From: a bacterium
GTDB lineage: Bacteria; UBA10199; 2-02-FULL-50-16; JAJFLM01
DNA length: 64,000 bases
Reading direction: 5' to 3'
NCBI GenBank assembly: GCA_965216315.1
Contig: CBDCFN010000016.1
Coordinates: 96,001-160,000, forward strand
Positions 2,619 to 59,311 of the stretch are shown piece by piece (within the stretch, counting starts at the first letter, position 1; every line of letters starts with the position of its first letter). Made by a program: the position numbers and the translations under genes. The notes under the pieces are model-generated. The model had not been told where the DNA came from. It did not search any database and saw only the letters and a program-made list of their open reading frames with translations.

Positions 2619-2767
2619 TTATCGACGACGTACTGCGATCGTTGCGTTCGGGTCCACTGCAAGTCGTGACAAAACGTCCACGCGAGTGGACAAGCTAATT
2701 GTAATTATCGGCTGATAACGGGAGACGTTGTGGCAAAGGCGGCGTTTCTGTTTACGTGAGTCAACAG
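2619..2767 (-). promoter_or_regulatory. Two RCAAC-N16-CGATAA promoters plus palindromic operator
   Basis: Motifs at 2619-2645 and 2705-2731; CTGTTTAC-GTGA-GTCAACAG at 2748-2767. Confidence 0.6.
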
Positions 2768-2822
2768 TTGTTATTGGCATAAATTAACTGGCAGGGGCGA
2801 AGTGATTCTTTGCCTTATTAAT

Positions 2823-3968
2823 TTAGTTGGTTTTAGTGAGTAGCGCAGGCAATTCTTTTAGGCATATCGACAACGGGATAACATCGATTTTTCCTTCACT
2901 CATGCGTCGGGACCCTCCATAGACGAGATAGGCCTTGGCTTGAGGATAGTCGCGCAAGAAAGATCTCAGACCGGAAAAATCCTTTTTTTGAATTTTGGCG
3001 GTGCGCTTGATTTCAATCGCGACGAGGCCTTGTTTGCCATACAGGATGAAGTCGACTTCTGCTCCATTGGCGGTGCGCCAGTAGAAGAGTTCGTAACCCG
3101 GATTATAATAGTCGTTAATGGCCCTGAGCTCCTGAAACAAGAGTGTTTCAAAGGAGACCCCTTCGATTTCTTCAGGCCTGTCCAGCGGCCCCGCTGGGCG
3201 TATGGTCCTGAAGACCCCCACATCAAAGAAATAGAATTTTGGATGGGTGACCGTGCGTCGTTTGGCTCGTTTGGTGAAGACGGGGAGTCGGACACCGATT
3301 AAGAGGTCTTCCAGAATAGTAAAGTAACTTTCTACGACTTTTCGCTCAGTGGCGCATTCACGCGCGACTTCTGAAATATTGAGTACAGAGCCTTGAGAAA
3401 AACTTGCGGCCTCCATAAACCGTGCAAAGGTTCCGAGGTTGCGAGTGAGCCCTTCTGCCTGGACTTCTTCTTTGAGATAAGTCTTAACATAACTCTCAAG
3501 ATATTTTTTGGGGTCGGGTTCGCTTGGAATGGCCGGTAAGTGTCCAAACTGGAGCGAGCGCTCTAAATTAAAGTCACGGCCGAGTTCATTTGTTGTAAGT
3601 GGATACAGATTATAGGTGAGGGCGCGTCCTGCCAGTAGATTGACGCCTTTGCGGCGTAATTTTCGGGCACTGGATCCCGTTAGGATAAAGTGATGCCGTT
3701 TTTTTTCGATGAGACGATGCACTTCATCTAGTAGTGTTGGGACTTTCTGGATTTCATCGATAATGATCCAGTCATCAAAACCTTGAGGGATAAAGTTTTC
3801 GAGTCTTTGCGGGTGAGCTAAGAGATCAGTGTATATATCGGCTTCCAATAGGTCCAGGTAGAGCGCATCAGGATATTGCTTTTGAACCCAAGTTGATTTT
3901 CCGGTTCCGCGCGGGCCAAAAAGAAAGAAACTTTTTTTTTCGGGGGGCTTGAGTAATCTGGAGTACAT
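2823..3968 (-). CDS. AAA_14 / DUF4143 ATP-binding protein
   Basis: Walker A GPRGTGKS, IIDEIQK, LTGSS, C-terminal EVDF..AIEIK; likely start MYSRLL at 3968. Confidence 0.9.
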   Translation of the reverse strand: MYSRLLKPPEKKSFFLFGPRGTGKSTWVQKQYPDALYLDLLEADIYTDLLAHPQRLENFIPQGFDDWIIIDEIQKVPTLLDEVHRLIEKKRHHFILTGSSARKLRRKGVNLLAGRALTYNLYPLTTNELGRDFNLERSLQFGHLPAIPSEPDPKKYLESYVKTYLKEEVQAEGLTRNLGTFARFMEAASFSQGSVLNISEVARECATERKVVESYFTILEDLLIGVRLPVFTKRAKRRTVTHPKFYFFDVGVFRTIRPAGPLDRPEEIEGVSFETLLFQELRAINDYYNPGYELFYWRTANGAEVDFILYGKQGLVAIEIKRTAKIQKKDFSGLRSFLRDYPQAKAYLVYGGSRRMSEGKIDVIPLSICLKELPALLTKTN

Positions 3969-4056
3969 AACTCCATAATGCATATAAATATGGAATTATC
4001 AATTCCATATTGCATATTATTTATATTGAGAGAAGATGTATAAATATCTAATAATA

Positions 4057-5316
4057 TCAGCTAGTTATCTTTATATCGGAGACCTCATCTTCTTCTACAG
4101 CAATTTGTTCGTTCTCAGCCATCTCGTCTTGAACCGCCGCGGCTAAATCTTCAGTGATGACGACGCGTAGTCGGGCGGGTGTTTTCATGCGGTGCCATTC
4201 GTCGGCCAACTGGAGGCGGACGTCTTGAAAGTCTTTGTAAGCAGAGGCGGAATGATTCATTTCTTCATGGATGGCGAGTTTATTGAGCCTTGATCTGACA
4301 AATCTATAAAGAATCACGACGGCTATCCCGAGGCTCATAAAATATCCAGCAAGAGAGATCGTAGGAATGGTGCAGGATCCAAAATAGAAGAGCATGAACC
4401 CCAGAATAAATGGGAATTCGGTGTTCCAAAAATTACTCATTATTAGCCTATCCGCTTGTAGCTCTTGGTTCAAGCGCAGTTCCTGTTTGTCGAGGGTGAG
4501 GCGCGCCTCTTCCAGCTGAATCCGAGTCGATTCGAACAGGATATTCTGCTGATCATTTTTTTCGGAATGAGTGCTGAGTTGTTTGGAGAGGGTATCGGCC
4601 AAACGGCGGAGCAGGAGACGTTCTGGGCGATGGATATCGATGACGTTCGGTGCCACGCGATAGAGTTGATCAAGCTCACATGAGCCGGGGATTTCTATTA
4701 GTTTTATGTCTGCGCCCGTTGCGTTGGCGTGAATAAACTTGGTCAGTTGCGCCAGCGCTTCTAGCTCTAAGGTAATATCAGGACGGCCTAAGAGCTGTAT
4801 GAGGACAATGAGTGCATAGTTTTGTAATAAATCCGCTGCGACATAAATATGAGCATAACTACTATCAAGATAACTTTTATTTAATCGAGGTTGTTGTGCG
4901 CTGATGAAAGCCCGCATTATTTGAATACCCCGCCGGGTTTCTTGCTGAGGGGTGGCGGCTTCAAAGGCTTGCAGGGCGGCGATTTTTTCTCGCAGCGAAA
5001 TCTCTCGGGAACTGAGCAGAGCGGCCAGCTCCGTTAAATTCCAGCCGTGTCGAATTCGGTAAGGGGCTCGGGGCGGCCCTGTTTCATCAGCGCTCATAAA
5101 ACAAGGTGCAACTTGTTGAGTCATGAGCTGTTCCGTATAGGACTGTGCTGCCGCGCGATCCGTAAGTTGTGCAAAGTGATAGTGTTGATCGAGTTGGCAC
5201 TGATAAGCGGAGATGCTGGCTGGCACTCCTGAGCAGGAGACATCAAAAACCGAGTAGGTACTGGAGACCAGCTGAGTCGGTACGACTGACGATGAAAGCA
5301 CTGTCGAAGAGAACAT
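4057..5316 (-). CDS. Hypothetical protein with coiled coil and C-terminal TM hairpin
   Basis: Long ORF; start reassigned to MFSSTVLSS at 5316, 7 nt downstream of the promoter motif at 5324-5350. Confidence 0.65.
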   Translation of the reverse strand: MFSSTVLSSSVVPTQLVSSTYSVFDVSCSGVPASISAYQCQLDQHYHFAQLTDRAAAQSYTEQLMTQQVAPCFMSADETGPPRAPYRIRHGWNLTELAALLSSREISLREKIAALQAFEAATPQQETRRGIQIMRAFISAQQPRLNKSYLDSSYAHIYVAADLLQNYALIVLIQLLGRPDITLELEALAQLTKFIHANATGADIKLIEIPGSCELDQLYRVAPNVIDIHRPERLLLRRLADTLSKQLSTHSEKNDQQNILFESTRIQLEEARLTLDKQELRLNQELQADRLIMSNFWNTEFPFILGFMLFYFGSCTIPTISLAGYFMSLGIAVVILYRFVRSRLNKLAIHEEMNHSASAYKDFQDVRLQLADEWHRMKTPARLRVVITEDLAAAVQDEMAENEQIAVEEDEVSDIKITS

Positions 5317-5480
5317 AACAGCATTTTCGCGATGAGAGGGGAATCGTTGCGGGAGAGTTGACCTCGCATCACATAAAGCGTCCACATCCGTGGATGATAA
5401 TTTTCTTCCACGACAACTAAGTCTTGGTCCTCAGCGAGAATGGAGTGAAATAAGTGCGCACCATTTGAAGGAGGAATAGG

Positions 5481-7974: not shown

Positions 7975-8772
7975 TTAGGCCAGCACGGTCGAGCGAACGA
8001 GGTCGCGCTTGCTGCGCGTGCGGTCTTTGGCAGCCTCAATCAATGGGCGTGCGCTTTCAAACAGGTACGTCCCGTCATTCATAGTCGAAAAATGGTCATG
8101 GGCGCGGTCGTAGGTCTCCGCCGTACGGTGACTCGGGCCGTCGGCAAGAAAGAGCAGGTCGGCGCTTGTCTCCAGCAGACTTGCGTAGCTGCCGCGTTGC
8201 TGGAGGTCGGGCTCGTGCGGCGGCCAACATAAGTAACTGCGCAGGGAGAGTTGGGTTCCCGCTAAGGCGCGCTCGCTCTGTCCGAGCCGCCAGGCATTGT
8301 ATGAAAATTCTAACATGGCTTTGGCCGCGTTGAGAATCACTCCCGCCTGCCGCCAGATGGCCGCCTCGTCGCGCGCTTTTTGTTCCGCTTCCAGCAGTGA
8401 TGCCGTGGCCGGTTCGATTGCATTACTCTTTAAATAATGAAACACACTTTGTATCGCTATCTGGGTGGCGCGTTCTTCATTTCGCGCGGCTTCAATCAGC
8501 TGGCTGAGTTCCTGCTGATAGCGGCTGACTTGAAAAGGGCGGGCGATCGTGAACCGCAGCGCTTGAAAGCCCCGTGCCAACATACCGGGCATGCGGGAAC
8601 GAAAACGTCTAATACGAAGGATGGGGGGCCTTGAGGCCGGATCGACAAAGTCAGGTTGCAATGGCCGTTGTGTTCCGAAGTCGCGCCAGGGCTGAGACGC
8701 ACTGTGCAGGCACCAGTTGGGTAGCCGGGCCGCGGTCATCGCGGCGGGAATCTGGAGGACGAGGGCGCTCAT
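7975..8772 (-). CDS. Hypothetical helical protein
   Basis: 265 aa ORF with promoter motif at 8783-8809. Confidence 0.6.
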   Translation of the reverse strand: MSALVLQIPAAMTAARLPNWCLHSASQPWRDFGTQRPLQPDFVDPASRPPILRIRRFRSRMPGMLARGFQALRFTIARPFQVSRYQQELSQLIEAARNEERATQIAIQSVFHYLKSNAIEPATASLLEAEQKARDEAAIWRQAGVILNAAKAMLEFSYNAWRLGQSERALAGTQLSLRSYLCWPPHEPDLQQRGSYASLLETSADLLFLADGPSHRTAETYDRAHDHFSTMNDGTYLFESARPLIEAAKDRTRSKRDLVRSTVLA

Positions 8773-8934
8773 GATAGGCCCGGTATCGAAGCAGAAAGCG
8801 ATGAGTTGTGGCTTTTTTGTTTAGGGGTCGTGTGAGGCCTCGGCCCCAATGAAACGGAGCAGGCTGCGCGCGACGCCCGTATTTTTGACCGCAATAAGTA
8901 CCTGTTGTTATGGAAAACTGATGAAAGTGATTAT

Positions 8935-9060
8935 CTGTTAACACGAGTCAACAGATAAGATCTTCGTTCACAGCTGTGAACAGATATTCCCGATTAAATG
9001 CAACTACCAGTTGTCTTAAACTGACATCGACGCGCAACTCTCATGACAATAGTCCGATAA
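8935..9060 (+). promoter_or_regulatory. Two palindromic operators plus GCAAC-N16/17 promoters
   Basis: Palindromes at 8935-8954 and 8964-8983; GCAAC at 9000 and GCAAC-N16-CGATAA at 9034-9060. Confidence 0.6.
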
Positions 9061-9077: not shown

Positions 9078-9926
9078 ATGATTATGCCGACTAAACAAAC
9101 ACAGCTATCGATTATTAATTATTTAGACTACCGACAGTTTTTATGCGATTGGTATGCGGCAGCTAAGAAGCAATATGGTTTTTCCTATCGGGTATTCTCG
9201 AGGAGAGCGGGCTTTAATTCACCCGCCGTGTTTAAGCAGGTGGCCGAGGGTGACCGGGGCCTGACGGAAAAGAGCTTGCCTAAATTTGCCAAGGGACTTG
9301 GTCTTAATGCTGAGGATAAGAAGTACTTTTATCTGCTGGTAAAATTTAATCAGGCCAAAAGCCACGAGAAGAAAAACACCTATTATCAAAAACTTATCCG
9401 TACGCGACAGTATCGGGAACTCAAACCGGTTGCTGAGGATCAGTACGAATACTATTCGACTTGGTATCATGCGGTTGTCCGCGAGCTTGTCGTTACCAAG
9501 GAATTTGACGGCAACCCGGAATGGGTCGCAAAGCGAGTGACGCCGCGGCTGACGATCGAACAGGTTCAACATTCGATAAATCTATTGGAGAGGCTTGGCT
9601 TTATCGCGAGGAATGAAAGTGAGGCCGGACCACTATGGTTGCAGGCGAGTCCGGTAGTCAGCTCCGGTGCCGAAGTGGCGTCGATTCCCCTGTTTAATTA
9701 TCATCGTTCCGTCTTGGATCTGGTTAAAAATCAGATGACGACAGTGGCTTGGCAAAACCGGGATGTGAGTACGTTAACCATCGGGATGGTCAAGGAACGT
9801 TTGCCTGAACTGAAGAAGAAAATCCAAGAATTCAGGCGCGAGATTATTCAAATGGTCTCTTCCGATCGCGATACGGAAGAGGTCTTTGTCCTGTCCATGC
9901 AGCTTTTACCCGTCACCGAAATGTAG
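9078..9926 (+). CDS. TIGR02147 (DUF4423) family protein
   Basis: Clear paralog of 1715..2599 (YLDYRQFL, YYSTWYH, RDVSTLT). Confidence 0.9.
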   Translation: MIMPTKQTQLSIINYLDYRQFLCDWYAAAKKQYGFSYRVFSRRAGFNSPAVFKQVAEGDRGLTEKSLPKFAKGLGLNAEDKKYFYLLVKFNQAKSHEKKNTYYQKLIRTRQYRELKPVAEDQYEYYSTWYHAVVRELVVTKEFDGNPEWVAKRVTPRLTIEQVQHSINLLERLGFIARNESEAGPLWLQASPVVSSGAEVASIPLFNYHRSVLDLVKNQMTTVAWQNRDVSTLTIGMVKERLPELKKKIQEFRREIIQMVSSDRDTEEVFVLSMQLLPVTEM

Positions 9927-10650: not shown

Positions 10651-10802
10651 TCTCTTCTTTACGCGTTCACACCCGCGAACAGATAATGACGTCATTCAAC
10701 AACATTCGTTTTCACATTGTCGATTACATAGTAATCGTAATATTTGCGGCAGATCTGAATGTGCTCATGACAACATTTATATGGCGGAGGTTTTTTTTGA
10801 AG

Positions 10803-13109: not shown

Positions 13110-13288
13110 TGCCTGATGCTTGAATGCAGCATTCGGTCTGTCGTTCACGGCTGAGAACAGATAATGCTTTCTTAGCACAACATGCTCTTTACCTGTGACG
13201 ACAAGTTTATAGTTTGATGATGGTGTTCCTAGCACTACTAGTTCGACGGAAACGCTTGCGCGCCCGTTCGAACTAACCATACCGCATC

Positions 13289-13322
13289 CGGGACGGGGCT
13301 CCGTTAGCCCCGTCCCGTTATT
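13289..13322. terminator. GC-rich hairpin between convergent genes
   Basis: GGGACGGGGCT..AGCCCCGTCCC followed by A/T-rich tail. Confidence 0.55.
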
Positions 13323-13348: not shown

Positions 13349-14467
13349 TCAAGACCAGGTGAATTTTTGGAGTGCCGCTTCGAAACGATCGCGTCGGGGA
13401 TGGCTAGCGAGATCTTGTTTGAGCTGTTTCTGAAAGAGCAGCAGTAATTCTTTGATTGCTTTATCGCGCTCTGGGTTGGTCGTTTTGAGATAGATTGGGA
13501 GGCTGGCGATAAAACCGTCGTAGGCGTTGTCGCGCGCGAGGCGGATCCCGCTCAAGAATGAGTCCAGGGCGTAATCGACATCGAGCTGCTGTTGTAAATC
13601 GGGAGGAGCGTCGTGATAACAGCGCTCGAACGCGTCGTACATAAAGAGTGCATCCGCGCGTTCCTCCTCACTGAAGAGGCCCCAACGATAGGCATGGTCG
13701 ATATCGTGATAGGCGGCCTGGAGCGGATGCGCATAACTCTGATGGAAGCGTTGGGGGCTGCAGGCTAGAAGCAGGCAGCGGCGGGCCGGTGTGTCCTCGA
13801 GCATGTCGCGCAAATCAGGCAAGGTGCTGATGCGGGCCGTCAGTTGGAGTTCGAGCGGTGACGCGATGTTGAGGGTTTGCAAGAGCCCGACGAGTAGGGC
13901 GAGGGGCGGCAGGCGGTGGATGCGCGTGCCCTCCGGAAAGAAGAATTCCTGGAGTCCTGCACCGGCGGGATGGCCGACCCCTAAGTTTCTTAAGTTGTTG
14001 GTCGCCGCGGCTTTGGCAGCACTCAAATACAAGACGCGTTGACTTTGTTTGTGGCGAACGGTGACAAAATCGCCGGGTTCATTCGCGAGCACCAGTTCAT
14101 GCATTTCCAAGGCGCCGCCGGCCGGGAAATCGGTTAGCCATCGTTCTACGACGGGCGGACGCTCGGAGATCGCGTCGAGCGGGACCGTGCGGATCTCGTC
14201 GAGAAAATTATGGGGCTGACCCGCTTTGTCTTCGTAGCCCTGCTGTAATTCAGTCGCGAGTGAAGTGCGGAGACTGTTCATCAGAGTGTCAGCCGCCTGA
14301 AATACCGTTACCCGCTGTTGCAAGGCGAGTCGTATCCTCTGTTGGCTCTGTTGTTGACCGTTACGCTGAACGACCGAATTTGCCTGGTTGAGATTGCTGA
14401 GCGTCGTCTGCAAAAAGGCGTAGTTCGCCGGCGTCAAGGCCGTCAATGTTGAGGGGAGTGAAACCAT
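13349..14467 (-). CDS. Hypothetical protein (HDIDH motif)
   Basis: 372 aa ORF; promoter motif 14474-14500 directly upstream of the ATG. Confidence 0.65.
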   Translation of the reverse strand: MVSLPSTLTALTPANYAFLQTTLSNLNQANSVVQRNGQQQSQQRIRLALQQRVTVFQAADTLMNSLRTSLATELQQGYEDKAGQPHNFLDEIRTVPLDAISERPPVVERWLTDFPAGGALEMHELVLANEPGDFVTVRHKQSQRVLYLSAAKAAATNNLRNLGVGHPAGAGLQEFFFPEGTRIHRLPPLALLVGLLQTLNIASPLELQLTARISTLPDLRDMLEDTPARRCLLLACSPQRFHQSYAHPLQAAYHDIDHAYRWGLFSEEERADALFMYDAFERCYHDAPPDLQQQLDVDYALDSFLSGIRLARDNAYDGFIASLPIYLKTTNPERDKAIKELLLLFQKQLKQDLASHPRRDRFEAALQKFTWS

Positions 14468-14659
14468 GCTGTCTTGTCGGGGACGCTGGACGAATGTTGT
14501 CGTTTAGCTCCAGAAAGTGTTGACGCGAGTAAGCGGCGTTTCAGCTGATGGCACCGATCCTCACAGCTTTGGGAGCCGTTCACGTGAATAAGCCCTCTTG
14601 TTATTAACGTTAAATCAAGTTGACGTTAATAAAAATATCCCTTATTAACATTTCAGGAC

Positions 14660-15811: not shown

Positions 15812-15953
15812 GGTGTTCACAACTGTAAACACTTTTCGCGCCGTTTTCACAACTTATGCTGATACATTTCGAAAAGCCGTAAGGATTCGGAGATGGATCC
15901 GAGTTGTGCCGTGACGATTTTCGCATCATTTGGTGAAGAAAAGAGTCGGAACC

Positions 15954-16991
15954 ATGTCATTTATCGCCAGCATCCCGATATCGGGGTATCTAAACAGCTT
16001 TCAGGTATTGCCGGATGCCGGGCAGATGGTCGTTCCGATCGTCTACGGTAGCCTCGGGCGTCCGTCGGCGGTCACCGTTAAAGCGGAGGTACTGACCTCG
16101 GAAAATGTCGATCGCTTCGCGGAGGCGGCTAGAGCATTGTTGCAAGGTCGAAAATCTCCGGGGCCGGTGCTATCAGAGGGTTGGGACATCCAGCGGGATC
16201 CTCTCGATGATCTCCTGGGTCGCAAGCGTATTCACGTCATCGAGCAGGTTGTGGGCTCGGGACCTTGGAAAGAGATTCAACTCACGGAGTCTGGTTCGAC
16301 CGATGAGGTTGGGCTTGTCGTGAATGTCAGCCAGCACCGAAACTCTCGTTCGGTTACGATGGGCATGGATATAGGCCGGGCCCGTAGACCTGCTTCTCTT
16401 GATGACTGGATTCTCACCAACGACTTTGCGATGCGATTGGAGGGACTTGCCGTTCGCGGGCTTAAGGAGTACGTCGGCCTATTGCCGGAGCACCGCGTGG
16501 ATCTCGTCTGTCATGTCTTCTTCAAGAGCCTGGGGTTGATGCTCGATGAGGAGGAATTCGAGGATGACTCACTTCCCCCACGCTTGAGAGAACTATTTGA
16601 AACGATGAAGCAGGTGAAACCTTCGCGGGAAAGAATGTATGAGCAGGCCGTGGAGATATTCGGTGAGGAAGAAGCGAAAAAGATCATGAATCGAGAGCCG
16701 AGGCAGGGGACGTCACGGGATGTCTACGTCCAATCGCATATCAGAGATCTCGGGCCGGGTGAGACATGCTCCTTTGACTATCGTGTCGAGAAAGAAAGTC
16801 TCGGTTTTACGGAGGAAGTCGCGATTTATTTTTTTTCATCAAGTCATCACTTTCCCTGGCCGCTCCCCACGTCGGTCCGCCCGATGTGGGACTGGTTGCT
16901 CTCGGATCGCTCCGAACCGGACGAAAATATGCGTCAAAAATATTATGAAATGACAGAGCGGACCTACGGCCATCTAAAACTCCGTAGTTGA
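15954..16991 (+). CDS. Hypothetical protein
   Basis: Long ORF, probable start MSFIASIP; promoter module at 15813-15875. Confidence 0.6.
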
Positions 16992-17022: not shown

Positions 17023-18180
17023 ATGGATGCCCCGATTTATCTGGACAACCACGCGACCACGCCCGTGGACCCCAAGGTCCTCGAGGCGATGCTGCCGTAC
17101 TTTCAAGAGCGGTTCGGCAATGCGGCGAGCAAACAGCATTCTTATGGCTGGGTGGCCGAAGAGGCCGTGGAGACCGCGCGCGAACAAATCGCGAAGCTGA
17201 TTGGCTGCAAGGCCAAAGAGATCGTTTTTACCAGCGGGGCGACGGAGGCCAACAACCTCGCCTTGTTCGGGGTCGCCCAGAGCTATCGTCCCCAAGGGAA
17301 GCATATTATTACGGTCGTTACCGAACACAAGGCCATCCTCGATCCGGTTGCCTATCTGGCAAAGAATGGATTCGACGTCACGTATCTTTCCGTCGATAAG
17401 CAAGGACACATCGATCTCGATCGGCTTGAAAAGGCGATTACGGATCAAACGATTTTAATCTCCGTCATGGCGGCGAACAATGAAATCGGGACCCTGCATC
17501 CTCTCGCTGAAATTGGTCAGTTCGCCAAGACGAAGGACGTTTTTTTTCACACCGACGCCGCCCAGGCGCTCGGAAAAATCCCATTAAATGTTGAAGCGAT
17601 GGGTATCGATTTAGTCAGCCTTTCCGCGCATAAGCTCTATGGGCCCAAGGGGATCGGGGCCCTTTATGTCCGGTCCCGTGATCCGCATGTGCAGTTGCTT
17701 CCTCAGATCTTGGGGGGCGGCCACGAACGCGGGTTGCGTTCCGGGACCTTAGCGGTTCCGCTCTGTGTCGGCTTTGGGGCGGCCTGTGCGCTTGCGCATC
17801 AGGTGATGCCGGAAGAGGCGCCGCGGATGAAGGGCCTCCGCGATCGTTTGCAGGACGGAATTTGCAATCAATTGGATGCCGTCCTTTTAAACGGCGATGC
17901 CGCGCGGCGCTTGCCCAACAATCTCAACCTCAGTTTTGCGGGGACGCAGGCCGAGGCCTTGATGATGAAACTTGATACGGTCGCCTGTTCCTCCGGTTCG
18001 GCGTGCACGACCGCGGACCCCAAACCGTCGCACGTGCTCCGTGCTTTAGGTCTGGGTGAAGATCTCGCGCATGCCGCCCTGCGCTTTGGCGTAGGACGCT
18101 TCAATACCGAGGCGGAGATCGACGTGGCGATCGAAAAGATCGTTGCCGCCGTCAATGAGCTCCGCGCAGGGTCTGGATAA
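17023..18180 (+). CDS. iscS: Cysteine desulfurase (IscS type)
   Basis: [19 protein letters not shown] (PLP Lys), SSGSACT catalytic Cys. Confidence 0.93.
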
Positions 18181-19198
18181 AAATTTCCAGTGATTCCGTT
18201 AAGAGATCAGCGAGTTGTGCCGCTGCGGTGACTTCAGGGTCGCCGCCGTCATCGGCCGGCACAACAGCGCCGAGCCTTTGCAGCTCCGATCCGACGACAT
18301 CACCTAGGGTCATCGAATTCCGCGGCAGATCCAAGGGCAGCGGGATTTCTTCGCTCTCATCATCCAGCAGCTTGATGTCGGGGCTCGAAGGGACGATTTC
18401 GTCATCGATACTGATGCGGCTCTGCGGCGCGCCCATGGTCTCTTGAAAGAGCGTGAGAGCGAGTTCACGGAGTGGGTCAGCAACGTTGAAGGCGGCCTGC
18501 AACTTGGCTTCAAAGGGATCTATCTCATCAGAAATTTGTCCCAAGAAAACCAACGCTGATTGGAGACGCATGGTAATCGCCAGGGCGGCTTCGTATTGAC
18601 TATGGATCGCATCGACATCGGACAAGAGGTCGATCGAGAGTGACGAGAGCGAGGCGTCTAAATCCAACAGGCTCGGTAAGGTCGGTCGGAATCCCATAAT
18701 GAGTCGGGCCGCGTTGATCGTTGCCGTGTCTTGGGTACGCGCCAAATGAGGCTGTTCGAGGAGAAACTCTAATTCGCGCGCCCGCGCGGCAAAGGCGTCT
18801 TCTCCTTCCAACTCGATATCACGGAGAATCGCGAGTGCATCATCGTTGTCAGCAAGGGCCTCGACGTAACTGATTTCATGAGTGACCGAGTCGCCTTCTC
18901 GAACGATAGAAAAGAATTCGTGGATCAGATCGAGTGGCGTCTCGCCTTCGTCAACCTCAGTCTGAGGGGCTGCATTGAGTAGCTGGTTGGCACTATCAGC
19001 CAAAGAATGCTCGCCGATTTCCTCGAGGGCCGGTCCCACGCTGCGCAGATAAGGGTCGACTTCCTCAACCGACTCCGTTTGCAGGGCATCATCCAAAAAA
19101 CTCTGGACGAAAGACACATTATAGGCACTGAGATTGGTAACACTGGCCAGGGCAAGTGAACTCGTGTTCAATGATAGCGACGGAATAGCCGAAAACAT
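18152..19198 (-). CDS. Hypothetical acidic helical protein
   Basis: GAGGAG RBS; promoter motif 19245-19271. Confidence 0.65.
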
Positions 19199-19281
19199 AA
19201 CAGACTCCTCATATTATTTGATGAATTCACAATGACGAGCCGTGTCATCGACGGGCGCGGCGATAGGTTGCGTCTTTTTTT

Positions 19282-38017: not shown

Positions 38018-38126
38018 GCCTATATATTGTGCACTGCGTCAAAAAGTTCGCAACTTTTTATCGAAGCGGACGAGCAAGGGCCGTTCCTCAAGAATTTGGA
38101 CAGTCATTTATTAATTTAGTGAAGGG

Positions 38127-42165: not shown

Positions 42166-42172
42166 AATCCAC

Positions 42173-42295: not shown

Positions 42296-42337
42296 GAAAG
42301 GCCCTTTTTCCCTTTATCGTTGCCCATGCCTTTAACC

Positions 42338-42420: not shown

Positions 42421-42482
42421 TAAATGATGGCAACAGGTGGCACAGGGCCCCTTGCAAATAATATCATAAATGATATCATCAT

Positions 42483-42704: not shown

Positions 42705-43026
42705 CGCGCGCGAATATCCTTTTGTTATTAGCTATGACGCGGCAGACCAGGTCTACATTGCGCGGGCCGTCGATCTCGCGGGCTGTCACTCCGATGGGGC
42801 GACACCGGAGAAGGCCGTCCGACGCATCTATGAAGCGATTGAGGGTTGGCTGGAGACCGCGCGTAAAAAACGCATCCCTATTCCGGCGCCCTCCCGACTC
42901 CAGGCCCAACCCAAGAAGTTCCTCTTGCGTATCGAGCCGCACAACGTCACCAAGCTGGAAACGATGGCGAGTTATAATAAAAAATCCCTGAATAAACTGA
43001 TCAATGAGGCGATTGAGGGGCTTTGA
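42685..43026 (+). CDS. hicB: HicB-family antitoxin with RHH tail
   Basis: DLAGCHSDGATPEKA..AIEGW..IPIP..SLNKLI. Confidence 0.88.
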   Translation: MPKKRHNAREYPFVISYDAADQVYIARAVDLAGCHSDGATPEKAVRRIYEAIEGWLETARKKRIPIPAPSRLQAQPKKFLLRIEPHNVTKLETMASYNKKSLNKLINEAIEGL

Positions 43027-43092
43027 AATGGGGAATAGAAAAGGGCAAAGGTTAATGGGAAACGGTGATCTTGCCCCTTGCCCATTTTTTCA

Positions 43093-43185
43093 GGGGATGA
43101 GTTGAGGTTTGTTTCGCCTTCAGCTTCTGGGCCTTTTGGGGGACGTTCCCTCTACGTCAAGGCGCTGGCGGTTTCGGGGAAATAA
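43093..43185 (+). repeat. pmbA 3'-end copy 2
   Basis: Translates GDELRFVSPSASGPFGGRSLYVKALAVSGK*. Confidence 0.88.
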
Positions 43186-43549
43186 GAGCGGGAAAAGGGG
43201 AAAGGCAAAGGGAAAACGTTGCCCTTTTTCCGTTTACCTTTGCCCCGTTCTCCCCTTGTTTGGGTTACCCCTTCCCCGTACCAAATTGAAATCCTCGAGT
43301 TTCATTATGAGATGATATAGCTTGCTGCTGATGGCTTCGGCATGATCAAGCAATTGAGCATGTAAATCCCTGCACGAGAATCCTGCCAAACAACTAGATC
43401 TTCGAAGCGGCGAATAGATGGCATGCTTGGGTTAAGAGCAAAATTGATGCCAAGTGGGGAAGGGGAGCGGGAAAAGTGAAATGGTCAAAGGGAAACCTTG
43501 TCCATTCATCATTTCCCATTGCCCGTTCTTCCCTTGCCCCGTTTTCCCC

Positions 43550-43742
43550 CTAGGATATTGGGTCGAGAACGGTAAGATCGATCATCCGATCGCTGATTTT
43601 ACCATCGCAGGCAACTTCTTTGACCTGCTCAAAAACATCATTGCCTTCGGCGAGGACCTACGTTTCGTCTCGCCCCATGCCTCCGGTTCCTGCGGGGGGC
43701 GGTCCCTCTACGTCAGGGACTTGGCGGTGTCAGGGGAAATAG
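43550..43742 (+). repeat. pmbA 3'-end copy 3 (~63 codons, +1 base near the stop)
   Basis: LGYWVENGKIDHPIADFTIAGNFFDLLKNIIAFGEDLRFVSPHASGSCGGRSLYVRDLAVSG. Confidence 0.92.
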
Positions 43743-43746
43743 TAGT

Positions 43747-44046
43747 CTAGGTTATGATTGAAATCCCACGGCGCGGAGCAGGTACTAATTTGCATCCGTA
43801 CCCCAAGGCCTTTAGTGCATTGAACAGGACATCATAGGTCAGCTTGGCTGTGCCGATCCCCGATTCTATTTGGGCGACGCGGCTCTGGCTGACATCGAGT
43901 ATTTTGGCGAACTCGACCTGTGTCAGCTTTTTTTTGATGCGTAGCTCACGAATCAGTTCCATCAAATGCTGCTTGGCTCGTACTTCATCAATATCAATGC
44001 CGAGATCGCTTGCTATTTCTTTAGCCGATGTCTTCTTCCAGGGCAT
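43747..44046 (-). CDS. XRE/HTH antitoxin (HigA-like)
   Basis: LRIKKKLTQVEFAKILDVSQSRVAQIESG. Confidence 0.85.
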   Translation of the reverse strand: MPWKKTSAKEIASDLGIDIDEVRAKQHLMELIRELRIKKKLTQVEFAKILDVSQSRVAQIESGIGTAKLTYDVLFNALKALGYGCKLVPAPRRGISIIT

Positions 44047-44047
44047 G

Positions 44048-44380
44048 CTAAACCTCTTTCAATCTTTTTAAGATAACCTTTTTCTCGCGCTCCGGGATCT
44101 TTTGCGTTTTTTTTCGAAAAGCATGGAGCAAGAAGATGGCATCCCGTTTCTTTAAATAATAAATAATCCTCGCGATTCCGGCCCGATCACGGAGCCTTAG
44201 CTCATGCAAACCCCTCTGTATTCCTGGCAAGGGCTTGGAGATGGGTGGCCCCAGCGTTTGTCCCCGCTCCAAGAGAGCGATGGCATCAACGAAATCCTGC
44301 CGCGCTCGAGATTCCAGGTCGGCCACAAATTCTTCGACCGGACTGCGCCCGCTACGGGTTACATAATACTTTATCGGCAT
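44048..44380 (-). CDS. RelE/ParE (HigB/Gp49-like) toxin
   Basis: GRSPVEEF..GLHELR..ARIIY..LLHAFRKKTQKIP. Confidence 0.88.
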   Translation of the reverse strand: MPIKYYVTRSGRSPVEEFVADLESRARQDFVDAIALLERGQTLGPPISKPLPGIQRGLHELRLRDRAGIARIIYYLKKRDAIFLLHAFRKKTQKIPEREKKVILKRLKEV

Positions 44381-44446
44381 CTTCTATTATAAGTTGCTGC
44401 TAATATTAGTCAAGACTAATACTTTTATTCTTGTTGAAAATAGCTA

Positions 44447-50891: not shown

Positions 50892-51027
50892 TTTCACGTG
50901 CTGTTCCTCCCTTTGTAAAGGGGGAGATCACGATATTCACTCGTTTACTTCAGTGAACAGAAAATAATTTCCCATAACATCTTTCTTCATCGGCGGTCGA
51001 TAAGGGGCCCTGAGAGGAGCGTTTAAT

Positions 51028-51510
51028 ATGACGTCGATGTTTGGAATTTTTTGCTCACCTTTATTAAGTGGGAGCCAACTTCTCGGCTCGCAACGGATGG
51101 CTGAAATTCGTGTTGCAGGAGCAGCAGAAGGCTATCGTGGGCCTAGCCTCGATGATTATGTGCGCATTACGGCGCAGAGTGAGCAGTTCCGAAATATCGG
51201 AAGCAACCTCGGCCTCGTAGGCGATGAACTCGCAGGCTATGTAAAACACCGTGAGTGTAATCTTGCTTGGCGCCAACATCGCGAGGCCCATGGACTTCTC
51301 CACCATGGAATATTCAAAGCCGAGTTTGCGAAATTTGAAGCGCTAACCAAGGTCAAATCACTAGAAAAACTGCGTGCTGAATGGGATTTCGAGCGTCACG
51401 GGCCAGCTTGGCCCTTTGGGGTCACTCGCGGTTATTCATCAGCCCAATCAAACTATATCGGGCAGTTGCTCTATGGAGCTGCCATCATTGCAGTCGACAA
51501 AGGAAAATAA
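51028..51510 (+). CDS. Hypothetical protein
   Basis: GAGGAG RBS; promoter module 50941-51003. Confidence 0.55.
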   Translation: MTSMFGIFCSPLLSGSQLLGSQRMAEIRVAGAAEGYRGPSLDDYVRITAQSEQFRNIGSNLGLVGDELAGYVKHRECNLAWRQHREAHGLLHHGIFKAEFAKFEALTKVKSLEKLRAEWDFERHGPAWPFGVTRGYSSAQSNYIGQLLYGAAIIAVDKGK

Positions 51511-51619
51511 TAACGTCCGTGTCGCGGATGAGGTTTAGGCTGTATACTCGAGGAAACAAATAGAGCTGCTTCATCACGTTTAGGCGCAACATCCACACAA
51601 GAATAGCGAGACATACTGC

Positions 51620-52723
51620 ATGATTATTGCAAGCGGAGTCATTAATTCATCCATGGCCTCCATCTTGGCGAGTAGTGCGTTTGACTCGAACAACCCGATA
51701 CGCAATCGGACCCAATTTGTTTCCGCCACGTCACCGCCTCTCTGGCAAAAGGTGGCGCCGCTATTGATTTCAACGTTAAGCCTGTTTGGTTCCGCTTGTG
51801 ATTGCGGCGACGGTCGCAGTGCTGCGCCAACGGCGGCAATCACTAGCAGTGCGCCGTCGGCGCCGGTTGAACCGACCGATCCGACGCGCCGGCAGAATCT
51901 GGATTTTCAAGGCCAGCCGGGACACGGTAGCATTCAATTCATCCGTGTCATCCATGCGTCGCGCTACTTCAAGGGGAGCATCCGTCAGATACCGAAGCAA
52001 TTTCTTAACAGCACCGGGCGCTATCAATTTAAGGTCCTGGAGGAACTCGCCCAGGCCCGTCCCAAGCATGTTTTTGTCGAAGGTCTTGCGAGTGAGCTCA
52101 ATTCGGTTGAGTTAAGCCATCCGCCGAGTCGCCATCCGTTTCATAAAGCCATTTCGGTTGGCGATATTCTGGCGGCGTTTCCGCAAGGCGTGCCGGCCGA
52201 GCCCAATGATATGCAATTACGCTACTTATTTAAGGCGGGTGCCCCTTTTATTTACGGCGTGTTGTTTAGCGGTGTCACGTTGCACGCAACCATTACGCTG
52301 GAACAAGATGAAGAGATTAGTCGTATGGAAAGGGAGCTGATTCTATCCGTGCCGCCGGAGCGTATCTCAGCAGGCGTCGCCAAGATGATTCAGGAAGGAA
52401 AATTAAAAGTTGGGCCAAACCAGCAAAAGATTCAGATAGACCCCCGTGATTACTTCGATCAAGAACAAAAAAACCGTTATCATTATTTTACCCACACACT
52501 GAGAGATAGTTACGCGGTGCAACACATAGTGGCGTTCTTAAAAAAACATCCCAGTGCCGAGGTTCATCTGGTGTATGGTGCTGCCCATAATTTTTGCGAT
52601 GAATTGGCAACTTCTGAGTTACAAGCGCAACTCACCTCTGTTTGGTGGGCGCAGGCTGATGTCAACATGGACGACGCAACGATGAACGAGACCATCAAAG
52701 CCTGTCCTGTAATCAACCAGTGA
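51620..52723 (+). CDS. Hypothetical protein, possible EreA/ChaN-like fold
   Basis: H..VFVEG..RD..LVYGAAH; promoter motif 51586-51612. Confidence 0.6.
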   Translation: MIIASGVINSSMASILASSAFDSNNPIRNRTQFVSATSPPLWQKVAPLLISTLSLFGSACDCGDGRSAAPTAAITSSAPSAPVEPTDPTRRQNLDFQGQPGHGSIQFIRVIHASRYFKGSIRQIPKQFLNSTGRYQFKVLEELAQARPKHVFVEGLASELNSVELSHPPSRHPFHKAISVGDILAAFPQGVPAEPNDMQLRYLFKAGAPFIYGVLFSGVTLHATITLEQDEEISRMERELILSVPPERISAGVAKMIQEGKLKVGPNQQKIQIDPRDYFDQEQKNRYHYFTHTLRDSYAVQHIVAFLKKHPSAEVHLVYGAAHNFCDELATSELQAQLTSVWWAQADVNMDDATMNETIKACPVINQ

Positions 52724-53237: not shown

Positions 53238-53567
53238 ATGGCTGAAGCAAAAGGTTTAAAGAAACCGGTAAAATTAAAACCCGAATTGGCAGCTATGTTG
53301 GGTGAACAGGAACTACCGAGGACTGAAATCACCAAGAAATTGTGGGACTATATCAAAGCCAATCAACTTCAGACTAAGACCGAAAATGGTAAGCCGGAAA
53401 ATGCCGGCAAGTTTATTGTCGCGGATGCAACGCTGCTGCCTATTTTTAAGAATACAAAATCTAAAAGTAAGTCGGGGAAGCTAACAGACTTAACGGGCAT
53501 GAAAGAGGGCGAGACCGTTAATATGATGCAAATGGCGGCCATTGTCGGGGCCAACATCGAATCTTAA
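53238..53567 (+). CDS. SWIB/MDM2-domain protein
   Basis: PELAAMLG..PRTEITKKLWDYIKANQLQ. Confidence 0.85.
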   Translation: MAEAKGLKKPVKLKPELAAMLGEQELPRTEITKKLWDYIKANQLQTKTENGKPENAGKFIVADATLLPIFKNTKSKSKSGKLTDLTGMKEGETVNMMQMAAIVGANIES

Positions 53568-56352: not shown

Positions 56353-58275
56353 TCAACGCGTATTAGCGTCTTCGTCCGGTTTTTCCAGCATCCCGAGCTT
56401 CTCTAGTCTTTTGGCTATCGCCCTAAGGTCGTAGGGCTTTTCGAGATAGGCTGACGGTTTCTGATCGGATTCTTCCTCTCTGAGTATCGATAGATTTCCA
56501 GAGGAGAGAATAATCTTTGCGTCAGGATGGTCGCTTCGTATCCTTTGCATGGTCTGAAGTCCGTCCATGCCCGGCATTTGATAGTCCATAATGACGAGAT
56601 CCGGGTTTTCCCGCTCAAATATTTCAATGGCCTCTTGACCACTCCCTGCCAGCAAGACTTGGCTAAAACCGAGTTTTTGCAACATTCGCCCGGAAGACCG
56701 TCTGACTATCGGGGTGTCATCGACAAATAAAATGACCAGGCCTTCTTTGGCTCGATATCCTAATGGCGGCTGTTCGGAGACTTTAGCGACTTTCCTTGGT
56801 TGGCTATAACGGAGATAGATCGTGAATGTCGTCCCTTTTCCGACCTCACTCGTGACTTCGATGTGACCGCCGTGCCCCTTTACTGTCGAGTGGACCATGG
56901 CTAGCCCAAGGCCGGTTCCAACGCCAATCGGCTTAGTGGTGAAGAAGGGGTCAAAAATCTTATCAAGATTTTCTGGTGGAATTCCCACTCCATCGTCACT
57001 CACGGAGATCTGCACGTATTCTCCCGGTTGCAGATCCAGTCGCGTCTGACAAAACTCTTTGCCTAACGTGACTCGTTCAGCCTTTAGTGAGACCGTTCCC
57101 TGTGAGCCGACAGCGTGTAACGCATTCATAGTCAGATGCAACAAAGCCTGCTCGATCATGCCTTTATCGATTCGTGAGGTAATTGCTCTACCCACCTCGA
57201 CGCTTACTTTAATGTCCGTCCCCACTCCACGTTCTCTGGGCAAATGTTTTTCGATGAAACGAAAGGAGGGGCCGAGATCGGCAAGGGTAAATTGGAGATT
57301 ATCCCGTCGTGCGTAGGTCATTATCTGCCTCATCAGCGTGACTGCCTTTTCGGAGCTATTGTAAGATAACTTTAGGTTCTCCATTATCTCCTCTGTATCC
57401 GCATCTGATTGGCCCATCCCATAGATTGCTAACTCGACGCCGACCATGATCCCTTGGAGCAGATTATTGAAATCGTGTGCGATGCCGCCGACTAAAGTGC
57501 CCAGTGCTTCCATCTTTTGGGCTTGCCTTAGCTGAGCTTCGAGTTTCTTGCGCGCGGTGATTTCGAGCGTTGCTACGGTGATGCCGATGATCGCGCCTTC
57601 CGCATCGCGCCTGGGCTCCACGGTGATATCGTAGACTTTTGTCTGGTCATTAACCGTATACGGGACCTCGCTGCGTTCCCCGACACCCGATTCAAGAACA
57701 CGGCGTTTCAATTGCATCAGTGGTTCGGCTTCGTGGAGTGGCGCGAGATCCAAGTCGGTCTTTCCGATGATGTCGTCCGGAGAGAGGCCCGATTGTTGAT
57801 TGTAGGCCCAGGTATAGCGAAGCTCCCGGTCTTGGTGGAGGAGCGCAACCGCGGAGCTCTTTAACGCCACGCGAAACCGCTCTTCGCTCTGCCGCAACGC
57901 CGTCTCCAGCCCTTCCAATTCCTTATCCGTTTCGGCGTCATGGCCAAAAAACGTCAGGGCCCCGGAAATCATCGTCGCGATGCGGGCTGTCTCTTGTGGT
58001 GAAAGGGTGGTACGGCCTTCGGCCACCTCAAGCAGGCGTGCCATTGCCTGCGTCATATCTTCAGAAAAAAAACCCGCGCTTTGGACGCGCTCTTGGAGAC
58101 TGGCAAGGCTTGTAATGTGGGGTGCCAGCGTCGAGGTGAGGGCTTCGGTAGACTGATCCGTGACCGACCGTTGCAGCACGGCCTCAATTCCACTCAGTGC
58201 ATGGAGCCCGTTACCGGACGTGCTGGCGAGGACTGCCGATGAAAAACCAAGATTGACTGCTGATGTGAGCAACAT
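56353..58275 (-). CDS. PAS hybrid sensor histidine kinase / receiver
   Basis: [40 protein letters not shown] receiver. Confidence 0.93.
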
Positions 58276-58381
58276 AATTGAGTACTATTTCTAATTGCCT
58301 CGTCTAGTCGGCTGTCCTCAAAAATTGTTGCTAAATTAAGACGTCCTGCGTCATTTCCCTAACTAGTTGAAACCAAGGAGG

Positions 58382-59221
58382 TTATTCTGTCGGGACGATA
58401 TGCAACGACACGGGTATCGGGGTCACCGGCGCCATCATCACGCCGAGGGTTGCCACGGCGAGTCCGCTGGACGGTCCACCGTCCAATGCCATCGCGGCAT
58501 CAATGTTGGGAAATATTTGGAGTAAGGCGTTTTGCAACTGATATAAATCTGTTTCTTGGGCCACGAGAAAAAACCAGCGCTCGTCGGTGGTTTTAACAAT
58601 AATGGTGCGGTTGGCGAGGATCGGTTCTTCTGAGGGTGGCGGCACGCCTATCTTGCCGCCCGGCTCGATGATCATGGGGCCGGCCTGCAGCGCGAGTTGA
58701 TAGTCACTCGTGTCGGCGGGAATTGTAATCCGTCCGGTCTGGGCATTGCGTAGATAGCTTAAATTCCACTCTCCGGTGTGTGTGACCGTCAACAACGCCG
58801 AATAAGGGCCTTCCGTTTCTGGGGGAGCAAGCTGTTGGCCGCCGGCAACTAGGAGTCCCATCGCCTCCCCACGCATTCCGAAAAAGCCGCCGTTGATCAG
58901 TGCTCCGCGTTGCCCCAGCTGGACCCAACTTTCATTAAAGGTTTTACCTTGATGCCGGTGGATGGATGCATTCACTTGTTTCGGATTGAAGGCGACTCCG
59001 TAGATGTGGACGCCCGCCTCATGCCGCACGAAGGGTACGATGCCGGCGACAGGGGGATGACTGTCGTGGCCACAGATAAGTTGATGGAGCCGCAACTCGG
59101 CATCCACAACGGGCTGGCGGACGAGCGGCTCCGGTGCGGGTTTGCAGCTCAGCTCATCGGCCGGCCGGCTTGCACGCGGAAGCACACAGATTTTTTGTTC
59201 GAGATCGAGGCACGTCCCCAT
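58382..59221 (-). CDS. Phosphodiester glycosidase (NAGPA) family protein
   Basis: INGGFF, QAGP, NRT, ALDGGPSS. Confidence 0.8.
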   Translation of the reverse strand: MGTCLDLEQKICVLPRASRPADELSCKPAPEPLVRQPVVDAELRLHQLICGHDSHPPVAGIVPFVRHEAGVHIYGVAFNPKQVNASIHRHQGKTFNESWVQLGQRGALINGGFFGMRGEAMGLLVAGGQQLAPPETEGPYSALLTVTHTGEWNLSYLRNAQTGRITIPADTSDYQLALQAGPMIIEPGGKIGVPPPSEEPILANRTIIVKTTDERWFFLVAQETDLYQLQNALLQIFPNIDAAMALDGGPSSGLAVATLGVMMAPVTPIPVSLHIVPTE

Positions 59222-59311
59222 GGTTCATTACCCACTTCGATCTCTCATCGGAGCATAAGGGGATTAGTTGCTAGGAACGCCTTTAAGACGGTGTTATTAG
59301 ACAGTTTTTAA

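Follow-up and report, generated by a model that had tools for sequence, protein, structure and literature searches.

What reads the bipartite element RCAAC-N16/17-CGA that recurs ahead of genes in a 64,000-nucleotide stretch of a UBA10199 genome (the window), and what kind of programme does it control? The original prediction named 17 sites here and took them for an alternative-sigma promoter of orphan and surface genes. All 17 lie at the coordinates and on the strands it gave, and 13 of them score at least 13 bits with a matrix trained on the whole genome; the site at 5413 and a degenerate copy at 9000 (0.2 bits) lose their support. The list captured most sites but missed two N16 sites, at 993 and 44371, and the whole class with N18 spacing. 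The window's intergenic DNA (8,182 bases by our own gene calls) holds 13 RCAAC-N16-CGA matches, compared with a mean of 0.43 and a maximum of 2 in 300 mononucleotide shuffles, and four N17 matches (shuffled mean 0.42, maximum 3). The sites and associated genes are:

993..1019, minus strand: N16 site, GAAAC variant, 13.8 bits, newly found
1715..2599, minus: TIGR02147/DUF4423 gene with two sites upstream
2619..2645, minus: N16 site, 19.7 bits, 20 nt ahead of TIGR02147 gene 1715-2599
2705..2731, minus: N16 site, 21.7 bits, second site of the same gene
5324..5350, minus: N16 site, 16.1 bits, ahead of orphan 4057-5226
5413..5440, plus: N17 site named earlier, weak at 8.2 bits and left out of counts
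8783..8809, minus: N16 site, 16.9 bits, ~11 nt ahead of the ATG of orphan 7975-8772 (predicted leaderless)
9034..9060, plus: N16 site, 23.0 bits, ahead of TIGR02147 gene 9084-9926
9084..9926, plus: TIGR02147/DUF4423 gene under the 9034 site
10699..10726, plus: N17 site, 14.5 bits, ahead of a beta-propeller gene ending at 12161
13177..13204, plus: N17 site, borderline at 12.8 bits; with no gene called on its strand for 1.4 kb, it marks a small RNA or is a chance match
14474..14500, minus: N16 site, 16.2 bits, 7 nt ahead of the ATG of orphan 13349-14467 (predicted leaderless, N-terminus free of charges)
15849..15875, plus: N16 site, 20.3 bits, ahead of orphan 15954-16991 (charge-free N-terminus)
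19245..19271, minus: N16 site, 20.1 bits, ahead of orphan 18152-19198 (shared leader, 15.9 bits)
38050..38076, plus: N16 site, 16.3 bits, ahead of orphan 38133-38807
44048-44380 and 43747-44046: Gp49/HTH toxin-antitoxin-like pair with the 44371 site at its start
44371..44397, minus: N16 site, 24.7 bits, newly found, at the start of that pair
50977..51003, plus: N16 site, ACATC variant, 17.3 bits, ahead of orphan 51097-51510
51586..51612, plus: N16 site, borderline at 12.5 bits, ahead of orphan 51653-52723
56353..58275, minus: PAS-HisKA-HATPase-REC hybrid kinase, shared charge-free leader (15.7 bits)
58305..58331, minus: N16 site, 16.5 bits, ahead of that hybrid histidine kinase
59245..59271, minus: N16 site, 19.9 bits, ahead of NAGPA-family gene 58382-59221

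Two further leader-bearing hybrid kinases lie under the same promoter type elsewhere in the genome. The motif is absent before iscS (best score -4.5 bits), tldD (1.8) and the sulfur operon (6.2), just as had been noticed. The adhesin part of the original prediction fails in the window, where the three DUF4215 genes have best upstream scores of 8.2, -1.6 and 11.3 bits. Its inclusion of TIGR02147 modules holds for 5 of the 14 copies in the genome but not for the remainder.

Genome-wide, the motif lies upstream of 277 of the 2541 called genes and of 5 and 5 in shuffled controls. Gene and start calls come from a simple purpose-made caller, and the matrix was trained on the same regions that it scores, with shuffles, other spacings and other genomes as controls. 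In tandem gaps 160 of 165 sites point with the gene and 5 against it, so that the enrichment and orientation originally proposed are borne out. The consensus, cRCAACTTTT-N10-GCCGATAA, has a sigma-28-like layout, with TTT(T) 3' of the -35 element, GC ahead of CGATAA and an N16 spacer. Its -10 matrix (G.55, C.55, C.96, G.99, A.99, T.74, A.75, A.74) is the sigma-28 box, as originally recognised. The distance from -35 pentamer to CGA is also that of sigma-28 (16 nt): RCAAC-N-CGATA occurs 127 times at N16, 44 times at N18 and 39 times at N17, the last two being minor classes, and 9-31 times at other spacings between 10 and 24. The -35 box is where the motif departs. Sigma-28 promoters have TAAAG/TTAAG there, and the motif has RCAAC instead; genome-wide, T(T/A)AAG-N-CGA has no N16 peak beyond codon periodicity, and RCAAC-N-CGT has no peak at all (151-195 at every spacing).

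One clue to the transcription start comes from the start codons. At 81 of 283 sites an ATG lies 7-11 nt 3' of the box, with a mode of 8 and 0-13 sites at each other position. The P. aeruginosa fliC promoter, as described in PMC12784957, consists of TCTAAAG and GCCGATAA, the latter at -15 to -8, which predicts a +1 position 8 nt 3' of the box. Shine-Dalgarno sequences are scarce when the ATG is within 14 nt of the box (15/98 vs 1081/2541 genes, p=2.5e-8). A chance background does exist, since 145 of 437 genome-wide matches fall inside called coding regions, and just 26 of these lie close to the start of a gene further downstream.

Could the motif be a transcription-factor site or a dispersed repeat rather than a core promoter? 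TIGR02147 regulators are abundant and lie near some sites. However, the motif is non-palindromic, strictly oriented and at a fixed distance from start codons, with a variable spacer sequence; convergent gaps, with four sites, are essentially without it, and its 213 N16 targets span 173 unrelated families. This reading is extremely improbable. Judged from these sequence properties, the motif is genuine and serves as the promoter for an alternative sigma factor, as originally proposed, and by its architecture it is a sigma-28 promoter with RCAAC replacing TAAAG. No earlier description of it was found in the openly searchable literature.

The next question is which sigma factor would read it. The genome has five sigma-70 genes, as an inventory of the kind originally proposed reveals, including one FliA-like, two ECF and one RpoH-like. 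The most likely reader is the sole FliA-like sigma, which appears to be a repurposed flagellar sigma copy encoded outside the window (G000:C16:350583-351410) within a type III secretion (T3SS) cluster, and we strongly infer that it binds the motif. Its best-matching family is TIGR02479, although the score is below the cut-off (133.1 vs 189.6 bits). Neither flagellin nor FlgM has a match in this 98% complete genome, which does not fit a flagellar class-3 regulon. In P. aeruginosa FliA, R80, D87 and R97 contact the -10 and extended -10 (GCCGA) and Q228 contacts the -35, according to PMC12784957. The first three correspond to R91, D98 and R108 here, invariant in 18/18 orthologues, whereas Q228 aligns with R230; S224 aligns with S226. 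The region 4.2 helix reads SKSWTSRLH where flagellar FliA has SESRVSQLH (KSWTSR in place of ESRVSQ), and this change may explain why RCAAC is read where flagellar FliA reads TAAAG. A K/R-x-W-x-x-R helix occurs in 98 of the 107 representatives with a readable pattern (150 examined), and SKSW-type and ESR-type sigmas split at 100/100. Compared with P. aeruginosa and E. coli FliA, as far as PMC12784957 and PDB 9wsf and 6pmi describe them, GCCGATAA, spacer length, R80/D87/R97 and S224 are conserved. In contrast, Arg replaces Q228, Lys and Trp replace the adjacent Glu and Arg, the alignments show a shorter region 3, and the targets are T3SS subunits rather than flagellin.

The distribution of sigma and motif is informative. 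Both occur in 87/87 phylum genomes and flagellin in 10/87, although these genomes are related rather than independent and the set holds no negative cases. Five flagellated members have a second FliA of the ES/EARV/I-SQ type, beside or away from flagellar genes. Among 12 flagellin upstream stretches from such members, none has RCAAC-N16-CGAT, and by eye 9-10 have T(A/C/T)AAG-N16/17-CGT. Beyond the phylum, 80 distant loci were compared, with sigma homologues of 35-48% identity and G+C of 0.39-0.73. There GCAAC is the top 5-mer 16 and 17 nt ahead of CGATA (21 and 17 of 606; T(A/C/T)AAG 2 and 1). A sense site lies directly 3' of the sigma gene in 32 of 73 loci (antisense 2, shuffled 0.2), and 41 of the 73 have no site there. 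Some of the loci that combine this sigma with the motif are named Myxococcota (Myxococcales/Polyangia).

These data also bear on another candidate reader. ECF -35 boxes often contain AAC, which is why an ECF sigma was originally considered, and the genome does have ECF and RpoH-like sigmas. However, with the queries used, homologues of the two ECF sigmas occur in 8/51 and 10/51 phylum genomes, compared with 87/87 for the motif. The -10 element is GCCGATAA, the CGT variant gives no peak, the RpoH consensus differs from the motif, and in distant loci the motif accompanies the SKSW sigma gene. An ECF or RpoH-like reader is thus very unlikely.

What would the FliA-like sigma control? One set of targets is in the T3SS itself. 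SctV, D, J, L, N, Q, R, S, T and U are all found, with SctD, J, Q, S and T below curated cut-offs. sctU lies away from the cluster with no motif site upstream; Pfam finds it, and BLAST of our own gene calls does not. Searches gave no dedicated T3SS secretin, only the GspD of a type II secretion system and a single weak match of 253 aa, and no Tad/Kil ATPase. The conserved motif targets are inner-rod-like and needle-like subunits. The needle-like gene is conserved between an SctE-sized gene, which has no meaningful PDB match, and a TPR gene with generic TPR matches only (CdsG model 32.8 bits vs cut-off 170). Its product has a needle-like C-terminus and no family name in Pfam or NCBIfam, with nothing above the PF09392 (needle) cut-off. 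The family profile matches EsaG at E 0.0022 and MxiH and PrgI at E 0.5-1.7, as well as an Atlas cluster with 11% PF09392; its profile-profile match to the rod-like family is weak (probability 4%, E 0.0099). AlphaFold gives a low-confidence model (mean pLDDT 57.5) with one helix, 127-182, at 72-93. As described in PMC12075869 and PMC3459982, the 'needleless' T3SS* of Myxococcus xanthus (Myxo NF-T3SS) likewise has an export apparatus and sorting platform and no dedicated secretin. It differs in the needle-like gene present here and the Tad/Kil ATPase not found here; the sigma and motif are shared by the distant loci named Myxococcales/Polyangia.

The larger set consists of N16 targets. These are mostly orphans, as originally predicted: 92/122 have no Pfam match at E<=1e-7, compared with 41/125 control operon leaders (p=1.6e-11). 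The 'surface gene' label holds only for the N18 subclass, where 15/25 have Sec-like signals; in the main N16 class these are rarer than in controls (21/213 vs 292/1217). On the evidence above, the ECF reading, the repeat or operator reading and the surface label for the N16 class are rejected. N16 proteins often lack D/E/K/R in residues 2-20 (95/213 vs 43/1217, p=2e-54). This leader is rich in Ser/Thr/Leu/Ala, has an LAA(S)-like stretch at its end, and is found on ATP-using enzymes (PFK, RtcB, acyl-CoA ligase-like, DAG kinase, hybrid kinases), several of which have a separate genomic copy without the promoter. The specific leader motif is lineage-limited, with counts of 5/16 in one genome of the same family, 1/17 in the same order and 0/13, 0/2 and 2/9 in other families. 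The same-family count includes one ordinary lipoprotein signal. Ankyrin repeats were searched for and not found; an ATP/ADP translocase search had no match anywhere, controls included, and is thus uninformative. Some other N16 targets (RibBA, LysM, DEAD helicase, TIGR02147) are ordinary proteins whose N-termini carry charges, which makes the regulon wider than T3SS cargo. Nevertheless, many N16 products are probably T3SS substrates, and the leader proteins, second copies of cytoplasmic enzymes included, are candidate cargo.

Perhaps, with the same sigma and promoter, the regulon is developmental (attack, dormant or late-phase), the leader an atypical Sec signal or membrane tether, and the duplicate enzymes active in the cell. 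This touches the cargo step alone, is compatible with the promoter assignment, and has not quite an even chance. The leader's LAA(S)-like end fits it, as do the 9-13 bits that the leader matrix gives true Sec signals, the ordinary cytoplasmic targets and the failure to find a dedicated secretin. There is also a precedent in Bdellovibrio bacteriovorus, whose FliA governs many non-flagellar or unknown genes, with 92/140 attack-phase promoters (Karunker et al. 2013, PMC3627812). That sigma-28 global regulator shares the N16 spacing and CCGATA -10; as described there, it differs in its TTAAG -35, while the sigma here belongs to a clade of its own and is encoded in a T3SS cluster, with many predicted leaderless targets and no flagellin or FlgM in the genome. 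On the other side, a charge-free stretch is unlike the basic n-region of Sec signals, and known T3SS signals have many serines and few charges over the first 16-30 residues (PMC2668754). The leader's presence on ATP-using enzymes, several of which have a separate copy lacking this promoter, also counts against the alternative.

Late substrates of the flagellar T3SS are expressed under the sigma-28 family. Some T3SSs have a dedicated ECF sigma, such as HrpL in Pseudomonas syringae and BtrS in Bordetella, which is encoded in the T3SS cluster, drives apparatus and scattered effector genes and has a box that predicts effectors; the sigma here is a sigma-28 paralogue. We consider it highly probable that the motif is the promoter of this T3SS-cluster paralogue and drives late subunits together with ~200 mostly orphan genes, many of them probable T3SS substrates. 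The sigma, encoded in a secretin-less T3SS cluster, would retain the region-2 residues for GCCGATAA and use an altered region-4.2 helix for RCAAC at an unchanged 16 nt. It would turn on small late subunits (inner-rod-like, needle-like) and some lipoproteins, mostly from N17/N18 promoters, and ~200 scattered, mostly orphan genes from N16 promoters, about a third as predicted leaderless mRNAs. Many N16 products with the charge-free leader would then be exported by the T3SS. Motif, orientation, ATG spacing, sigma co-occurrence, residue changes and target composition were computed directly; confidence in the start site, the leader as export signal and cargo entry into another bacterium is moderate to weak.

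A bolder extension is distinctly tentative. The system of UBA10199, Myxococcota and Acidobacteriota might be an early-branching injectisome that retains flagellar regulatory logic with a re-coded -35, its own sigma-28 clade driving the inner rod, a needle disguised by about 100 additional Gly-rich residues, and a genome-wide arsenal injected into prey or hosts. Roughly 100-150 charge-free-leader proteins, including second copies of PFK, RtcB and a GatA-like amidase and hybrid histidine kinases, would rewire bacterial prey or hosts. A lifestyle programme of host contact or predation, as originally suggested, is a plausible guess that the T3SS link makes more specific.

The myxobacterial secretin-less T3SS is required for prey lysis, as reported in PMC12075869. 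What is added here is that the conserved targets are rod-like and needle-like and that N16 targets are orphan, Sec-poor and often charge-free at the N-terminus. A promoter that moves with the cluster's sigma across phyla offers a sequence handle on the regulon and its candidate cargo, and the needle-like protein may be the subunit that has been reported as missing. Two sigma-28 paralogues that coexist naturally in the same cell and use distinct -35 boxes should be useful for the sigma recognition code. If the injectisome reading is true, the box would list the substrates of 'needleless' predatory T3SS* straight from sequence. For this uncultured phylum, it is a first clue to lifestyle.

The motif is strongly over-represented. 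Intergenic DNA of the window holds 13 N16 sites (16-nt spacer) where 0.43 are expected, and 4 N17 sites where 0.42 are expected. The 17 sites named in the original prediction were all located, although scoring by matrix left 13, with two borderline and those at 5413 and 9000 failing; a strong site at 44371-44397 (minus strand) had been overlooked. Across the source genome (2.96 Mb, 98% complete), of which the window is G000:C16:96001-160000, RCAAC-N-CGATA matches number 127 for N16, 39 for N17, 44 for N18 and 9-31 for other spacings. Genes were called with our own hexamer caller (2541 genes, start positions approximate), and the matrix was iterated on upstream regions, converging on cRCAACTTTT-N10-GCCGATAA. 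At a cut-off of 13 bits it matches 277 of 2541 upstream regions, far above the two shuffled sets, the control that had been proposed, with 5 matches each, and the mid-gene stretches, with 3 of 1734. This matrix is scored on its own training regions, so independent tests carry weight. Of the sites in tandem gaps, 160 are aligned with genes and 5 against; 123 others lie in divergent gaps and 4 in convergent gaps. The 96 antisense matches are largely divergent promoters. Called coding DNA holds 145 of the 437 genome-wide sites.

The N17 site at 13177-13204 (plus strand) lacks a downstream gene, and a G+C-rich hairpin-like stretch follows near 13280-13320. Possibly it drives a small RNA, or an antisense RNA to 13349-14467. 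Two further features of the window are as follows.

29238-37970, plus strand: sulfur cluster, no promoter site
53238-53567, plus strand: stand-alone SWIB/MDM2-domain gene

The sulfur cluster (three PALP enzymes, NIL, JAB, ThiS, radical SAM, sulfate symporter, ATP sulfurylase) is predicted from gene content to carry out sulfur-carrier-type cysteine synthesis. A short TldD/PmbA C-terminal fragment at 43454-43750 (plus strand), lying between HicB and a Gp49/HTH pair, duplicates the end of 40227-41570 and appears to form the terminal part of an inserted element (41668-43750).

What kind of promoter is this? The available text of PMC12784957 gives the P. aeruginosa fliC promoter as TCTAAAG at -36 to -30 and GCCGATAA at -15 to -8. 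The motif shares this -10 box and the spacing, as the suggestion of a sigma-28-like -10 half had it, but RCAAC replaces TAAAG. Taking promoter and reader jointly, it is very probably a sigma-28-type promoter read by the FliA-like sigma of the type III secretion (T3SS) cluster. The fliC-like geometry predicts a +1 lying 8 nt beyond the box. Gene-opening ATGs cluster 7-11 nt past the box (17, 23, 11, 14 and 16; 81 of 283 non-coding sites), compared with 0-13 at every other position up to 60 nt, and Shine-Dalgarno sequences occur in 15 of 98 genes whose ATG is at most 14 nt from the box versus 1081 of 2541. Therefore, about one third of N16 transcripts are predicted to be leaderless, and the start codons near the box would mark the expected transcription start. 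The predicted share varies in relatives (7/20, 6/16, 4/17, 1/5 and 0/12).

The genome encodes five sigma-70 proteins: RpoD, one RpoH-like, two ECF and one FliA/WhiG-like. The last sits in the T3SS cluster with SctV, SctD-like, J, L, N, Q, R, S and T; sctU is located apart. Neither flagellin nor FlgM was found in this 98% complete genome. By alignment (construct offset 5, confirmed at ten residues), P. aeruginosa FliA R80, D87 and R97 are conserved as R91, D98 and R108, and S224 as S226. In place of Q228 this sigma has R230, and the neighbouring E and R are replaced by K225 and W227. Sigma-70 R584 reads a C:G pair; Lys in place of Glu, facing a last -35 base that is C rather than G, would fit this mode.

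All 87 phylum genomes contain both the sigma and the motif (18-105 strict sites per genome, reversed pattern 0-7), which supports the proposed alternative sigma. The ECF reading of the -35 AAC does not survive, the queries used having found homologues of the two ECF sigmas in 8 and 10 of 51 genomes. Phylum kin are not independent, so the flagellin-promoter and distant-locus controls weigh more. Ten of the 87 members are flagellated and may have another FliA whose helix is of the usual kind (ES/EARV/I-SQ type), seen in the 5 fetched. RCAAC-N16-CGAT is absent from all 12 flagellin upstream stretches examined; most, judged by eye, carry T(A/C/T)AAG-N16/17-CGT (L086-L097). For the phylum's flagellar FliA the -10 thus seems to be shifted (TCCGT), so that both boxes would insulate this FliA from the T3SS sigma.

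Further afield, the SKSW-type helix (KSWTSR) marks a wide sigma clade, split from the ESR-type at 100/100 in a tree of 38 rows; some of its members carry the names Acidobacteriota, Myxococcales and Polyangia. Among the best 80 of 592 distant metagenome loci of this clade, GCAAC is the commonest 5-mer 16 and 17 nt before CGATA, with no prior set. A sense site directly follows the sigma gene in 32 of 73 distant loci (antisense 2, shuffled 0.2), and 41 have no motif site there. In one family, three genomes have an additional SKSW-type sigma that evolves fast and sits on a long branch.

L106:8752-9285, L107:1637-2245 and L108:1141-1767: second SKSW-type sigma genes of the three genomes

HrpL serves its own T3SS, and the system here would work likewise. 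It also resembles that of Bdellovibrio, whose FliA uses TTAAG-N16-CCGATA at 92 of 140 attack-phase promoters (available text of PMC3627812). It falls short of a FliA system, however, in its -35 box and its helix, in a score below the family cut-off, and in having neither flagellin nor FlgM. Literature searches of the main text of openly accessible papers found no prior description of this promoter or sigma.

The regulon comprises 270 genes with a site, or 362 with operon followers. Pfam scanning in 40 site-rich 20-kb tiles (122 of 152 targets and 125 of 287 control leaders scanned) left 92 of 122 targets without a match versus 41 of 125 controls, so the targets are indeed mostly orphans, as predicted. 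The accompanying description as surface genes holds for the N18 class, where a crude rule finds Sec or lipoprotein signals in 15 of 25 genes, but not for the N16 class (21 of 213 versus 292 of 1217 controls). The strongest sites (24-27 bits) precede a paralogous orphan family starting M-G-C-D/E-L-Y-G-A-S (G000:C16:2175864-2185583, on the source contig).

The targets conserved across phyla are small T3SS genes, and N18 prevails in relatives' T3SS loci (68 of 95 sites, 46 loci). One is inner-rod-like (PF17001 in 13 of 24 members; MxiI E 0.025). Another is needle-like: its C-terminus matches needle subunits, with E 0.0022 for PDB 7Y6C chain F, an EsaG peptide (PMC9426511), and 0.5-1.7 for MxiH and PrgI, and its family matches an Atlas cluster with 11% PF09392. 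Pfam and NCBIfam searches gave it no name. It is present in 63 of 65 phylum genomes and in 14 of the distant loci (best 80 of 592), in every case followed by a TPR gene and in most cases preceded by a small conserved gene, which is the E-F-G order. In genome G059 it looks frameshift-split (L059 region; G059:C1:1821835-1822367), which may be an assembly error. Such T3SSs are labeled 'needle-less' in the available text of PMC3459982 and PMC12075869; as a lead, the needle-like gene would speak against that label. Further genes in or next to the cluster also have promoter sites.

G000:C16:349541-349996 (L007:17542-17994): third conserved T3SS-cluster gene, N18 promoter, 30 loci
G000:C16:360590-370038 (L008:9591-19036): five large orphan genes directly after sctT, of which three have promoter sites of their own

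The former encodes 130-165 aa, Gly/Pro-rich, two genes ahead of the sigma, and is possibly a late substrate or an anti-sigma. The latter are the best local effector candidates.

The N16 proteins share an unusual N-terminus. Residues 2-20 lack D, E, K and R in 95 of 213, versus 43 of 1217 control leaders (p=2e-54), and 113 of the 167 proteins of at least 150 aa with such a start belong to the regulon. A Ser/Thr-rich leader motif with an L-L-A-A-S-like end, trained on half of the N16 set, recalls 33 of 106 held-out proteins versus 40 of 1217 controls and 7 of 102 internal stretches. Its carriers span 173 unrelated families and include ATP-using cytoplasmic enzymes: PFK, RtcB, an acyl-CoA ligase-like protein, DAG kinase and three hybrid histidine kinases.

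56353-58275 of the window: leader-bearing hybrid histidine kinase, one of the three

PFK, RtcB and a GatA-like amidase each also have a separate promoter-less copy. In a genome of the same family (G002; L295, L289), a second RtcB copy and a patatin are likewise under the promoter.

In known T3SS signals, the first 16-30 residues are rich in serine and poor in charge (available text of PMC2668754). Are the leader proteins T3SS cargo? We consider the chances about even. Counted against export are that the exact leader motif fades outside the family, with charge-poor N-termini persisting in two other families (p=7e-4 and 0.017) and not in a third (2 genes); that the leader matrix scores Sec signals too; that several targets have ordinary N-termini; and that no outer-membrane exit route was found, the search for secretins having turned up a type II GspD and one weak 253-aa hit. 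The one secretion ATPase in the genome search was GspE. If exported, the leader proteins would pass through the T3SS into another cell. The bacterial-type signalling domains, together with ankyrin repeats being searched for and not found, point to a bacterial target cell. Perhaps, then, though we hold this tentatively and lean against it, a re-coded sigma-28 clade drives a needle, a rod and an arsenal of leader proteins that would be injected into bacterial prey or hosts.
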